In this document: piece after piece, positions 14,006 to 57,573 of the stretch
Layout of the letters: each line of letters opens with the position of its first letter
Position numbering within the stretch: the first letter of the stretch is position 1
Assembly (NCBI GenBank): GCA_041686095.1
Contig: JAWLEN010000002.1
Location: forward strand, 8,143-72,142
Source of the DNA: Candidatus Aminicenantes bacterium
GTDB taxonomy: Bacteria > Acidobacteriota > Aminicenantia > Aminicenantales > Aminicenantaceae
Length of the DNA stretch: 64,000 nt
Direction: 5' to 3'
Notes under the pieces: model-generated
What the model was told of the DNA's origin: nothing
Databases searched by the model: none
What the model saw: the letters and a program-made list of their open reading frames with translations, nothing else
Translations under genes and position numbers: made by a program

Positions 14006-14052
14006 TTTTATAATGAAAACATCGCCATTTTTTTATGAATAGTTCAGGTTAA
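14006..14052 (+). repeat. AT-rich intergenic repeat, partial copy (ATCGCCATTTTTTTATGAATAGTTCAGGTTAA)
   Basis: TTTTATAATGAAAACATCGCCATTTTTTTATGAATAGTTCAGGTTAA matches the inner ~45 nt of the 108-bp copies at 31138 and 35748 with a few substitutions. Confidence 0.8.
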
Positions 14053-19203: not shown

Positions 19204-20142
19204 ATGGCCATTCGAAGGTGTCCTTACTGCAAAGCAATCATTGAAGATGATGGTGAATACTGTTCTAATTGTGGAACAAGACTTATATTTCCGGAAGACG
19301 AGGAAATAGAAGAGGAAATTCCTGGAGAAAAAATAGTGGATGAAGAGGAAGAGGATAAAAAAGAAGAAGACTTTGAACAAGAAAAAATTGAAGAAGAGGA
19401 AGAAGAGGAAGAAGAGCTTGAAGCAGAAAAGATAGAGGAAGAAAAGTCAGTAAAGGAAACCAAAGGTCTTCCTGAAGAAAAATTAACAGACGAAGAGATT
19501 AAGGCTGAAATAGAAGAGGGGAAGCAGCCTTCCTTAAAAACAGAGGACCTGCGGAATGCCCTTGATTCTTCGGAAAAAGAAAAAAAGGAAATAGAATCCT
19601 TTCTTGATTCTTTAAAAAAAGAACGCCAGGATATTAAAGACAGAATAGAAGAAGTCGAGGGGGAACTTCCTCCATGGGCAGAAACTATAAAGGAAGAAGA
19701 AAAGCAGGAAAAAACAGAAAAAGAAGAGGAAGAATCCGAACAGAAGTTTTTTGAAGACCTGGAAGCAGTGGATGAGGAGGAAGAGGAGGAAATGGCCGAA
19801 GAACCAGAAGTTGAAACAGATGAACAAACAGAGCTTCCCTTTTACAAAGATAAAGAGGCAAAAGCAAAAAAAAAGAAAATAAAGCTCTATAAAAAGCCTT
19901 CTATAAAAATTTCGGATTGGGTAAAGTCTCGGATATTTGATGTGCTTTTTATTGGAGGATTATGGTTTATCACTTTATGGATTGCTTCCTATCTGACTTC
20001 AGTGACTGTATTTCAGCTTATTTCCGGTTCTGTTTTTGCTGTGGCGGCCTTTTTTATCATTCTGCTTTCTGTTTATTTCTTTTTCTTTTTCTTTTTTCTT
20101 GGAGAAACCATCGGGGACTATGTATTTCCCAAACAAAACTAA
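19204..20142 (+). CDS. zinc-ribbon / poly-acidic / C-terminal membrane (RDD-like) protein, unknown function
   Basis: N-terminal CPYCKAIIEDDGEYCSNCG zinc ribbon. About 200 aa of E/K-rich low complexity encoded by GAA/GAG runs. Two or three C-terminal TM helices ending in an FFFFFFF tract. Confidence 0.5.
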   Translation: MAIRRCPYCKAIIEDDGEYCSNCGTRLIFPEDEEIEEEIPGEKIVDEEEEDKKEEDFEQEKIEEEEEEEEELEAEKIEEEKSVKETKGLPEEKLTDEEIKAEIEEGKQPSLKTEDLRNALDSSEKEKKEIESFLDSLKKERQDIKDRIEEVEGELPPWAETIKEEEKQEKTEKEEEESEQKFFEDLEAVDEEEEEEMAEEPEVETDEQTELPFYKDKEAKAKKKKIKLYKKPSIKISDWVKSRIFDVLFIGGLWFITLWIASYLTSVTVFQLISGSVFAVAAFFIILLSVYFFFFFFFLGETIGDYVFPKQN

Positions 20143-20160
20143 CCTGAACTATTCATAAAA
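20141..20160 (-). repeat. AT-rich repeat motif instance (reverse orientation)
   Basis: AACCTGAACTATTCATAAAA is the reverse complement of TTTTATGAATAGTTCAGGTT. Its first bases overlap the TAA stop (20140-20142) of the preceding gene. Confidence 0.7.
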
Positions 20161-20183
20161 TATGTATGCATTTTTATACAATA

Positions 20184-20276
20184 CTGTGATACATATGAAG
20201 TATTATATTTATTAAGAGGAGAGGGCAGGGGATGAGGAATCCCCTGTGAGGGCGGAGCGGGCATGGTTCCTCTTTA
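20184..20276 (+). repeat. GC-rich structured repeat, truncated copy C (leader + first ~60 nt of core)
   Basis: CTGTGATACATATGAAGTATTATATTTATTAAGAGGAGAGGGCAGGGGATGAGGAATCCCCTGTGAGGGCGGAGCGGGCATGGTTCCTCTTTA matches copy B positions 57327-57420 with 5 hand-counted mismatches. It ends where the full copies continue GAGGGGAGCG. Confidence 0.85.
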
Positions 20277-31139: not shown

Positions 31140-31245
31140 CAGGAAAATAGTTCCAATCGTCATTTTTGAAAAAAACCTTGTATATCGCTGAAAATAAATT
31201 GATAATAAAAACATCGCCATTTTTTTATGAATAGGTCAGGTTAAT
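31138..31245 (+). repeat. AT-rich 108-bp repeat, left copy of an inverted pair
   Basis: AACAGGAAAATAGTTCCAATCGTCATTTTTGAAAAAAACCTTGTATATCGCTGAAAATAAATTGATAATAAAAACATCGCCATTTTTTTATGAATAGGTCAGGTTAAT. It differs from the reverse complement of 35748-35854 by one A indel and one substitution (hand alignment). Confidence 0.9.
31178..31206 (+). promoter_or_regulatory. promoter-like sequence inside the repeat, facing the histidine kinase gene
   Basis: TTGTAT (31178-31183), 17 nt, GATAAT (31201-31206), about 80 nt upstream of ATG 31285. Confidence 0.35.
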
Positions 31246-35747: not shown

Positions 35748-35854
35748 ATTAACCTGACCTATTCATAAAAAAATGGCGATGTTTTTATTATCAATTTATT
35801 TTCAGCGATATACAATGTTTTTTCAAAAATGACGATTGGAACTATTTTCCTGTT
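35748..35854 (-). repeat. AT-rich repeat, right copy of the inverted pair (107 bp)
   Basis: Its reverse complement is identical to 31138-31245 except A6 vs A7 and CA vs CC in ...TTTTTGAAAAAA(A)C(A/C)TTGTAT... Confidence 0.9.
35787..35815 (-). promoter_or_regulatory. promoter-like sequence inside the repeat, facing the CYTH gene
   Basis: Minus strand TTGTAT (35815-35810), 17 nt, GATAAT (35792-35787), about 50 nt upstream of ATG 35736. Confidence 0.35.
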
Positions 35855-53454: not shown

Positions 53455-53468
53455 TTCTATTGTTTCTT

Positions 53469-53496
53469 ATTATCTAAAGTATAAGAATCGTGTCAA
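53469..53496 (-). promoter_or_regulatory. sigma70-like promoter candidate for the GHMP-efp-AOR-aldolase operon
   Basis: Minus strand TTGACA (53496-53491), 16 nt, GATAAT (53474-53469), 14 nt upstream of ATG 53454. Confidence 0.45.
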
Positions 53497-53572
53497 ATTG
53501 TTTTGACCTTTGCGTTTCAATTTAATTTATTTTTTTATCTTGAAAATTTGAAGGTATGGCTGAAGCGATATT

Positions 53573-53764
53573 AAAGGAAGCCTTTCCAAAACCGTGATAC
53601 ATGTGAAGTATAATGTTTAATAAGGGGAGAGGGCGAGGGATGAGGAATCCCCTGTGAGGGCGGAGCGGGCAGGGTTCCTCTTTAGAGGGGAGCGAAGCCC
53701 GAACCGGGAGGGAGATTCCACGCTGGGGAATCGAGCGGGTGACGAATCCCTTGCCCTTCCCCTT
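53573..53764 (+). repeat. GC-rich structured repeat, full copy A (candidate multi-copy ncRNA)
   Basis: ~50-nt AT-rich leader (...CCAAAACCGTGATACATGTGAAGTATAATGTTTAATAA) and a 139-nt GC-rich core (53624-53762). About 95% identical to 57308-57499 by hand count. The core ends GGGGAGAGGGCGAGGGAT / ATCCCTTGCCCTTCCCC pair over 17 bp with one bulged A. Confidence 0.85.
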
Positions 53765-53870
53765 CAAAAATCTGAAGGGAGCACAAGCCAAATCTGATTT
53801 TCAAATCCTTTTCTTGCAGAGCGTTTGGTTTGAGTCTATCATATATAATCTGATGGAATGAGGAGGCCGG

Positions 53871-56326: not shown

Positions 56327-57306
56327 TTTACCTATATTTTGCTGCTTTGGTGATATCCTTAATAGTGCTTTTTAAGTGCGCTGATTTTTTCATTGAAGGT
56401 TCTGTAGGCGTAGCTCATATTTTTAGCATACCTAAGTTAGTGGTGGGAATTGTTTTTATGGGACTTGCCACCACAGCGCCTGAGTTGGCGGTTTCGGTCC
56501 AGGCTGCATTTCTGGGGCATCCTGAAATATCTTTAGGAAATGCCATTGGCTCTGTTATAGCTGATGATGGAATTGCCATGGCTTTAGCAGGCATTGTGGC
56601 TTCTACGGCTATTATTGTCAACTGCCGTGTTCTGAGAATCATAGGCTTTTTTCTCCTGGGCGTTGATTTTTTTGCTTATTTATTAGTCATGAATGGAGAA
56701 GTAAGCCGTATCGAAGGAATGGCCTTATTAGGCCTTTTAGTTTTTTATTTTTTGCTCATTATTTTTATGCATAAGAGAAAAAAAGGATTCCTTCCTTCTT
56801 CTGAAGAACAGTTGGCCAAAGAGGAACATTATTCTGATGAGAACAGAAGCCGGAGGATTAGAAAATATATATTTTACTTTATAGGTGGAGTCATAGGAGT
56901 TGTGTTGACCAGCCGGGTTATTATATGGTCAGCTGTCCATATATCCCATTATTTTTCTATTTCAGAAACAGTAATTGGCCTTACTGTGATTGCTATTGGA
57001 ACCTCTCTTCCTGAAATCAGCACAGCCGTGACAGCTGCTGTAAAGGGGGAAGGAGATATTGCTATAGGCAATATATTAGGAGCAGATGTGTTGAATATAT
57101 TATGGATTATTGGGATGTCTGCAGTGGTCAGGCCTATTAATGTGGAAGTCGAAGTGATTCGATTCACCTTTCCCTATATGATACTTATCGTCACTGTTAT
57201 GCTGGTTTCTATGAGGATAGGGTGTCGGTTTGGAAGATTAAAAGGAATCATTCTTCTATTCTTCTATATCATTTATTTTATTTGGACTCTGAAATTTTTC
57301 CTTTAA
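56323..57306 (+). CDS. Ca2+/cation antiporter (CaCA, YrbG-like)
   Basis: Two alpha-repeat motifs, GNAIGSVIADDG and GNILGADVLNILW. About 10 TM helices. Confidence 0.8.
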   Translation: MIYLYFAALVISLIVLFKCADFFIEGSVGVAHIFSIPKLVVGIVFMGLATTAPELAVSVQAAFLGHPEISLGNAIGSVIADDGIAMALAGIVASTAIIVNCRVLRIIGFFLLGVDFFAYLLVMNGEVSRIEGMALLGLLVFYFLLIIFMHKRKKGFLPSSEEQLAKEEHYSDENRSRRIRKYIFYFIGGVIGVVLTSRVIIWSAVHISHYFSISETVIGLTVIAIGTSLPEISTAVTAAVKGEGDIAIGNILGADVLNILWIIGMSAVVRPINVEVEVIRFTFPYMILIVTVMLVSMRIGCRFGRLKGIILLFFYIIYFIWTLKFFL

Positions 57307-57307
57307 G

Positions 57308-57499
57308 AAAGGAAGAATTCCCAAAACCGTGATACAGGTGAAGTATTATGTTTATTAAGGGGAGAGGGCAGGGGATGAGGAATCCCCTGTGAGGGCGGAG
57401 CGGGCATGGTTCCTCTTTAGAGGGGAGCGAAGCCCGAACCGGGAGAGAGATTCCACGCTGGGGAATCGAGCGGGTGACGAATCCCTTGCCCTTCCCCTT
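57308..57499 (+). repeat. GC-rich structured repeat, full copy B (candidate multi-copy ncRNA)
   Basis: Starts 2 nt after the antiporter stop. Core 57359-57497 (139 nt) differs from copy A at 4 positions. Same 17-bp closing helix. Confidence 0.85.
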
Positions 57500-57573
57500 A
57501 TATGTCAAATAAAATCTACCACGGTATTAGAAATGATTCCTTTAAGAATATTTTATTTGATAGAATAAAAAAA

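Follow-up and report, generated by a model that had tools for sequence, protein, structure and literature searches.

A mobile GC-rich element of Aminicenantes with a conserved structured core: MITE transposition, in-place inversions and a candidate small-RNA cargo

MITEs, non-autonomous DNA transposons, are usually regarded as junk, and their effects on neighbouring genes as incidental. Families with a structured or transcribed body include Correia of Neisseria, ERIC/IRU of enterobacteria, RUP and BOX of pneumococci, and bcr1 of Bacillus. The element studied here resembles bacterial MITEs in being small, non-coding and intergenic, in its terminal inverted repeats (TIRs), target duplication and many copies, in the long hairpin of the whole unit, and in internal promoter-like boxes. 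It differs from them in a multi-branch cargo of 139 nt with 63-66% G+C in a genome of 40% G+C, in that this cargo is more conserved than the inverted repeats and occurs in at least two unrelated frames, in the apparent strand-specific conservation of its structure, and in a long variant with an extra 155-nt domain. It has no sequence similarity to any of the families named above or to the QMITEs of Coxiella, also MITEs with a structured or transcribed body (PMC5896051; for a general review, see PMC3184786).

GC-rich extragenic palindromes, hairpin doublets and a mosaic arrangement with short modules in either orientation are shared with REP, BIME and REPIN sequences. REPs are simple 20-40 nt hairpins mobilised by RAYT without target duplication, whereas here we observe 9-bp duplications of the DDE type, 25-bp terminal repeats and a branched 104-nt interior. 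Invertons (fimS, Mpi-controlled promoters of Bacteroides, flgB/cwpV of C. difficile) are likewise short segments between conserved inverted repeats, occur in both orientations and have dispersed homologous copies, but our element has no linked recombinase, no evidence of both states within a population, and no recognisable promoter in the flipped segment. Chloroplast hairpin-loop micro-inversions and quasi-palindrome template switching also produce recurrent loop flips with break points in stems; those loops are usually of few to tens of nt and functionless, while here a conserved 104-nt module is flipped.

In this element the signals needed for transposition vary more than the interior, whose substitutions look like those of a transcript that is folded and read from one strand. 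Confirmation would make it a clear example, in bacteria, of MITEs that spread a structured RNA gene and raise its copy number. To our knowledge, Aminicenantes are a lineage of phylum level without cultured members, in which small RNAs have not been described; no description of the element was found in the literature.

The element in the window and its transposition

The window, that is, the whole analysed stretch of 64,000 nt, has about 40% G+C and contains two full copies of the element, A (53573-53764) and B (57308-57499), which share 95% of their 192 nt, as well as copy C, a 5' fragment at about 20179-20276 (Table 1). All three lie where the initial annotation of this DNA had placed them, and are on the + strand. 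A 57-nt piece of the core has two matches in the window at ≤3 mismatches and none in 100 shuffles. The core of copy A is 66% G+C, so the description of a GC-rich core in AT-rich surroundings was correct. Rfam 15 identifies only two tRNAs in the window; the window tRNAs have 49-54% G+C, which suggests a mesophilic host, and the GC-rich core is then not due to thermophily.

Table 1. Positions of element parts and related features (window coordinates, unless a locus is named)
Feature	Position	Strand	Details
Copy A leader	53576-53623	+	left TIR 53576-53600; TATAAT -10-like box 53609-53614
Copy A 139-nt core	53624-53762	+	arms 53624-53641 and 53746-53762; inner part 53642-53745
Copy A right flank	53765-53808	+	second MITE-type frame end (AAAATCTGAAGGGAGCACAAGCC..CTGATTT), not the family right TIR
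Copy B, whole element	57311-57540	+	230 bp
Copy B left target-site duplication	57302-57310		TTTAAGAAA, matches TTTAAGAAT at 57541-57549
Copy B leader	57311-57358	+	25-bp left TIR GGAAGAATTCCCAAAACCGTGATAC; TATTAT -10-like box; GTTTATTAA
Copy B 139-nt core	57359-57497	+	arms 57359-57376 and 57481-57497; inner part 57377-57480
Copy B trailer	57498-57540	+	degenerate right TIR at end ...CCACGGTATTAGAAATGATTCC; 86% match to family trailer
Copy B right target-site duplication	57541-57549		TTTAAGAAT
Copy C (5' fragment)	20165-20276	+	degenerate leader to 20215; first 61 core nt 20216-20276
L010 target duplication			TTTAGATGT / TTTAGATGT
L007 target duplication			TTACTGCAA / TTACTGCAG
L016 target duplication			TGTTCTTAT / TGCTCTTAT
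L033 target duplication			ATGCGTTTT / ATCCGTTTT
L019 target duplication			right CTTTGAGTC; left copy one base offset
Second-frame core carrier, L052	3202-3339		
Second-frame core carrier, L054	3991-4127		
Second-frame core carriers, L014/L021			
Second-frame core carrier, L053			
Second-frame end, window	53765-53808		
Long-form locus, L003	6195-6340		
Long-form loci, L025	1-80; 1990-2069		
Outward promoter-like site, window	57486-57515	+	
Outward promoter-like site, L019	5589-5560	-	
Outward promoter-like site, L050	4221-4250	+	

The limits of the repeat unit given in the initial annotation proved too narrow: copy B extends 3' past the core to 57540, the AT-rich leader starts with a TIR whose partner lies 3' of the core, and the unit is bracketed by 9-bp direct repeats, all of which had been missed. 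In the alignment of copies the leader opens with GGAAGCATTTCCAAAACCGTGATAC, and the reverse complement ends the unit after a 43-nt trailer; the two pair in at least 15 copies. TIRs with leader and trailer (frame 1) are present in 20 or more copies, and the full unit is 230-245 bp. Nine-bp direct repeats, 8/9 or 9/9 identical, are found at both ends of six copies, including copy B (Table 1). In the whole-element fold of copy B the leader pairs with the trailer (-101.6 kcal/mol, z = -6.15).

Moreover, the copy B site is empty in two relatives, L045 and L049, which have the same gene order and a spacer of 87-93 bp between the Na/Ca-exchanger and AlaDH genes, with a single target of the TTTAAGGAA type. 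The AlaDH of L045 is 93% identical to that of the window, and its spacer aligns as ...GAAATTTTTGG-TTTAAGGAA-CGATT..., with one target and no element. The native AlaDH promoter lies downstream of the copy B insertion and is intact. The TIRs, the target duplication and the empty site in relatives thus identify copy B as a MITE insertion, and transposition of a MITE as the origin of the copies is settled. A transposase encoded elsewhere would insert the element, and the resulting 8-9 bp target duplication is seen directly.

The ncRNA family proposed in the initial annotation, a vertically inherited multi-copy gene with its own promoter and no mobility, agrees with the -10-like box and the structured core. 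It is contradicted by the TIRs, the target duplications, the empty copy B site and the insertions at unrelated loci in different lineages, and we consider it very improbable. The multi-copy and non-coding character of the repeat stands, as apparently does selection on its + strand structure (see below); the ordinary chromosomal gene family does not.

No transposase-bearing element with matching inverted repeats was found in the ~400 kb of DNA examined or in viral contigs. A search for solo inverted repeats beside a transposase gave decayed mini-copies only. L025 had been considered as a composite element, and is really two separate copies around ordinary genes; the large ORF by the long variant of L003 resembles glycosyl hydrolase genes and is neither a transposase nor a reverse transcriptase.

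Copy A is a chimera of a frame-1 leader, the core and an end of the second frame type. Copy C is truncated in the apical hairpin and adjoins the end of another repeat at 20140-20160 (+). The latter belongs to a second repeat family, with ends TTAACCTGAACTATTCATAAAAAAATGGCGATG..., also observed in the window at 14007-14052 (-), 31199-31244 (-) and 35749-35804 (+). In L046 and L049 members of this family occupy both intergenic spacers that hold copies A and B in the window, so these spacers are insertion hot spots.

Conservation, fold and strand asymmetry of the core

On average, two of the ten full copies compared differ by 12.4% in the leader, 12.2% in the trailer, 3-6% in the arms and 4.0% in the 104-nt interior (about 5% once the 20 nt fixed by the search pattern are discounted). 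The ends of the element thus vary approximately three times as much as its core. Between lineages, identity at orthologous site A is 92-96% in the core, compared to 84-92% in the leader and 79-85% in the flanking genes. The native intergenic DNA between the GHMP-kinase and MBL genes (53455-53575 and 53809-53870) is 88-92% identical, while the flanking genes are only 79% identical.

The core is also found without the frame-1 leader and trailer. The same 139-nt core is borne by another frame of the MITE type, which has AAATTCAGGTGTGGCT(G/T)A(A/T)GC at its ends, e.g., in the prfA-prmC spacer (L052, L054), and cores with still other flanks are seen in L005/L050, L013 and L036. One core is thus common to at least two unrelated MITE frames. 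The second frame also exists without the core, e.g., at L025 270-470. At three loci (L003 and two in L025) the core has a long form of 290 nt, in which the P7 loop is swapped for an extra 155 nt, the added part being GC-rich and folding well; the whole long form folds at -141.7 kcal/mol (z = -6.05), and its search against Rfam, permissive threshold included, gave nothing credible. The hairpins of this extra domain show their own G-U-compatible differences between copies.

Folded as + strand RNA, the core reaches -79.2 kcal/mol (z = -5.8), and its - strand, -60.4 kcal/mol (z = -3.0). With Rfam 15, the element has no match at the gathering score in the window or related loci, and only noise at E up to 10, in line with the initial annotation, which did not recognise it as a familiar RNA class. 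In the consensus fold, helix P1 (columns 1-18 with 123-138), formed by the arms, is followed by tandem G-A/A-G pairs, a short P2 (AUCC/GGGU), a small hairpin (CCU-GUGA-GGG), a long arm (CGG/CCG, CGGGC/GCCCG and CCUC-UUUA-GAGG), a purine-rich single strand, and hairpin P7 (GAUUCC...GGAAUC). Two of the four helices proposed earlier recur here: the 17-bp closing helix with a bulged A, which is real and has 17-18 bp with one bulged purine, and GAUUCC/GGAAUC, with two covarying pairs. GAGGAA/UUCCUC is broken by substitutions at columns 19 and 52, and the place of CCCG-AAC-CGGG is taken by CGGGC/GCCCG plus CGG/CCG. Against the covariance model, the core of copy B scores 170.5 bits.

Standard pairs make up 97.6% of cells in an alignment of 28 distinct sequences, a somewhat inflated agreement, as this alignment was fitted to the model. 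Seven pairs are changed on both sides, a number reached by 1 of 500 shuffles, and so are 19 cells, reached by none of the 500; when the partners are slid as a control, the counts do not exceed 4 pairs and 5 cells. Four of the covarying pairs are in P1 (1-138, 3-136, 8-133, 13-128), one is in the CGG/CCG helix (39-82), and two are in P7 (94-106, 96-104). An independent MAFFT alignment of 21 sequences has 98.0% of cells paired and three covarying pairs; on the - strand, only 87.7% of cells in these helices pair. The initial annotation had named random helix-disrupting substitutions as the mark of a DNA-level repeat or MITE. A MITE is indeed the origin of the copies, while the substitutions follow the opposite pattern.

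Read on the + strand, 19 polymorphic pairs alternate between Watson-Crick and G-U, and five, between Watson-Crick and A-C, the latter corresponding to G-U on the opposite strand; two of these five occur in L038, where the arms are swapped by an inversion. On a strand-blind expectation, both transition outcomes in a G-C or A-U pair are equally likely. Unpaired columns have no such bias (five A>G and one C>T vs. four G>A and two T>C).

The orientation of the core is random relative to neighbouring genes and replication, with 13 cores in the same direction as the downstream gene and eight in the opposite one, and nine vs. 16 relative to the local GC skew. Hence neither host read-through nor the replication strand can define the + strand, and strand identity most simply comes from a signal inside the element. 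The compensatory and strand-specific G-U changes, together with the core conservation and the random orientation, point to selection of the secondary structure on a + strand transcript, and so favour an RNA product. Two other roles considered were rejected: a link to the replication strand, on the GC skew, and a cis-acting UTR or terminator as the general role, given the mixed orientation (five tandem-sense, five tandem-antisense, six divergent and two convergent cases).

We therefore weigh a MITE that carries a structured + strand small RNA as its cargo, a reading we hold with moderate confidence, against accounts at the DNA level. The repeat might be purely selfish DNA that makes no RNA, with a core that is just a stable filler of palindromic or cruciform shape, conserved through recent amplification and gene conversion among copies. 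The MITE hallmarks and the presence of decayed and internally deleted copies fit this account. The family is also young, with 96% mean column identity, so the covariation derives from few events, which weakens the case for RNA as well. P7 alleles recur across different loci, and three alleles occur at one orthologous locus, suggesting gene conversion, which could account for part of the conservation. Moreover, the GNRA-type loop (GUGA) is lost in divergent copies, and G-T is the best-tolerated mismatch in DNA hairpins too. However, a selfish repeat does not predict the 19:5 G-U excess on the + strand alongside balanced changes at unpaired sites, the compensatory changes in the internal, non-terminal helices P4 and P7, or a core threefold more conserved than the transposase-bound inverted repeats, and it leaves one core in unrelated frames unexplained. 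We give it a modest probability, well short of even.

Alternatively, the core could be a mobile ssDNA hairpin of the REPIN or IS200/IS605 kind, with an HUH/Y1 enzyme recognising the folded + strand and the frames being mere landing sites. Such mobility agrees with cores that are frameless or placed in at least two frames without a target duplication of their own, with the strand-specific conservation of hairpins and tolerance of G-T, and with the high sequence conservation. However, the core has no GC-skew orientation bias, unlike transposons tied to the lagging-strand template, no conserved target tetranucleotide or common motif flanks the arms, and 9-bp duplications accompany the frame-1 copies. 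A multi-branch interior whose internal helices covary exceeds the known needs of such transposases, and an unsystematic look through ~440 kb of DNA revealed no RAYT- or TnpA-like gene. This explanation is unlikely.

In-place inversions and predicted transcription

Three loci have the interior of the core reversed in place. Window site A has its orthologue in L038, with 82.6% identity over 3.8 kb that extends through the element flanks. Between GGGAT and ATCCC, the 104 nt of the L038 interior are exactly reverse-complemented, while lineage-specific arm variants remain with the flanks. In the prfA-prmC spacer, L054, from the window's species, and L052 share flanks and differ from each other by a flip of this kind. 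In L022 the core is reversed relative to its own leader and trailer. Hence at least three independent inversions of the 104-bp interior have occurred, two of them at orthologous loci.

These flips could be programmed, the element being a family of invertons in which a recombinase turns the 104-bp interior between the 17-18 bp arms and toggles an orientation-dependent signal, which could be sense vs. antisense RNA from the leader. Break points lie exactly at the inner arm ends in all three flips, the arms are conserved in all copies, and both orientations are seen at site A (L038 vs. the window and L018) as well as in the prfA-prmC spacer, all in line with a switch. Yet opposite states are observed only between lineages with 15-25% difference in the flanks, the three 99.9%-identical genomes (window, L041, L042) share orientation at both window loci, at least 22 of ~25 frame-1 copies are in one orientation, and no recombinase gene is linked. 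Loop flips between short inverted repeats are also generally known to arise without dedicated enzymes, as in chloroplast hairpin inversions and template switching. Programmed inversion is, in our estimate, quite unlikely. As no event is seen within a population, near-identical genomes agree and frame-1 orientation is nearly uniform, we attribute the flips to recombination or template switching that occasionally takes place between the arms, and regard them as a by-product, not a switch. For work on inversion between repeats of 17 bp, they offer a natural system.

The candidate strand signal in frame-1 copies, and the sole one inside the element, is the -10-like hexamer, which precedes the core by 9 nt. 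Its A2, A5 and T6 do not vary among 19 distinct leaders, unlike adjacent positions. The TATAAT box described earlier is thus present, but the promoter claimed for it consists of no more than the hexamer. No -35 hexamer is found 16-18 nt from the box, and the leader fails a sigma-70 scan that native promoters nearby pass. The core is followed by no canonical terminator, the consensus arm helix being succeeded by UUAUCUGU. The lack of a full promoter or terminator counts against a cargo RNA and suits a selfish repeat. Copies in other frames are without this leader, so a common promoter cannot account for all copies, and the inverted copies (L038, L022, L054 vs. L052) would yield antisense RNA, yet their cores are still intact.

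With these reservations, the cargo-RNA reading would work as follows. The core, as conserved cargo, is most likely transcribed from the + strand, with a start ~7-9 nt after the -10-like box that travels in the leader. The product would be an RNA of ~140 nt, with its ends clamped by the P1 arm helix, tandem G-A pairs next to it, and a junction with three hairpin arms. Judging from the substitution pattern, selection would maintain this fold. We would tentatively take it for a stable small RNA that binds protein or acts in regulation, for which the MITE would supply gene dosage and spread. Placed between inverted arms, the interior would occasionally flip through recombination or template switching, as is indeed observed.

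A more far-reaching version is that the core (139 nt; 290 nt in the long form) represents a new structured RNA class, mobile in at least two MITE frames, with expression toggled by inversion; such an RNA might act as a ribozyme, as a decoy or by binding protein. We regard this as speculative and unlikely; if true, it would make a dispersed, phase-variable small-RNA system in Aminicenantes.

Weak outward promoter-like sites, composed of TTGCCC in the arm and an AT-rich box in the leader or trailer (9/12 matches), are observed in some copies (Table 1). They were rejected as real promoters, as their frequency is at the chance level.

Distribution among genomes

The element is present in dozens of copies in several Aminicenantes lineages. 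The window itself is 99.9% identical to MAGs GCA_051746085.1 and GCA_046483545.1, and homologues of its alanine dehydrogenase are assigned to Candidatus Aminicenantes in their source records. A search with a 20-nt core pattern identified 11 copies in the fragmented Acidobacteriota MAG SMAG_U9192 and 22 real matches in JGI metagenomes; six further matches, in high-GC DNA, are due to chance. In all, one fragmented MAG has at least 12 copies. No matches were obtained when the whole element was compared by BLAST with collections of plasmids and phages, or when viral contigs were scanned twice by pattern. An origin from rRNA was rejected, as 16S and 23S of a carrier genome gave chance matches of 8-10 nt only.

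A single copy, L006, also detected by the core pattern, is labelled outside Acidobacteriota, being located in a 3.6-kb contig binned as Cloacimonadia (JBNGDW010000123.1). Its locus is orthologous to that of L033 (86% identical over 1 kb), an Aminicenantes-like contig, and therefore mis-binning seems more likely than inter-phylum transfer. Another orthologous pair differs in the extent of the element: the copy is whole in L028 (4893-5031), while in L009 (2078-2188) it ends after GAACCGG and is followed by unrelated AT-rich DNA, reflecting either a deletion or another insertion.

ORFs of 50-98 aa overlie the element in the window (53522-53791 and 57278-57508, both on the - strand) and elsewhere (P0121-P0134), and are annotated as hypothetical proteins. 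A coding function of the element was rejected, since no reading frame is conserved. The ORFs are artefacts, because the frame shifts from copy to copy and one subfamily has a 1-nt deletion. A search of a protein collection with the translated element found 14 such spurious proteins on additional copies, every one of them from an Aminicenantes or Acidobacteriota MAG; in practice, public MAG annotations thus place spurious "hypothetical proteins" over the element.
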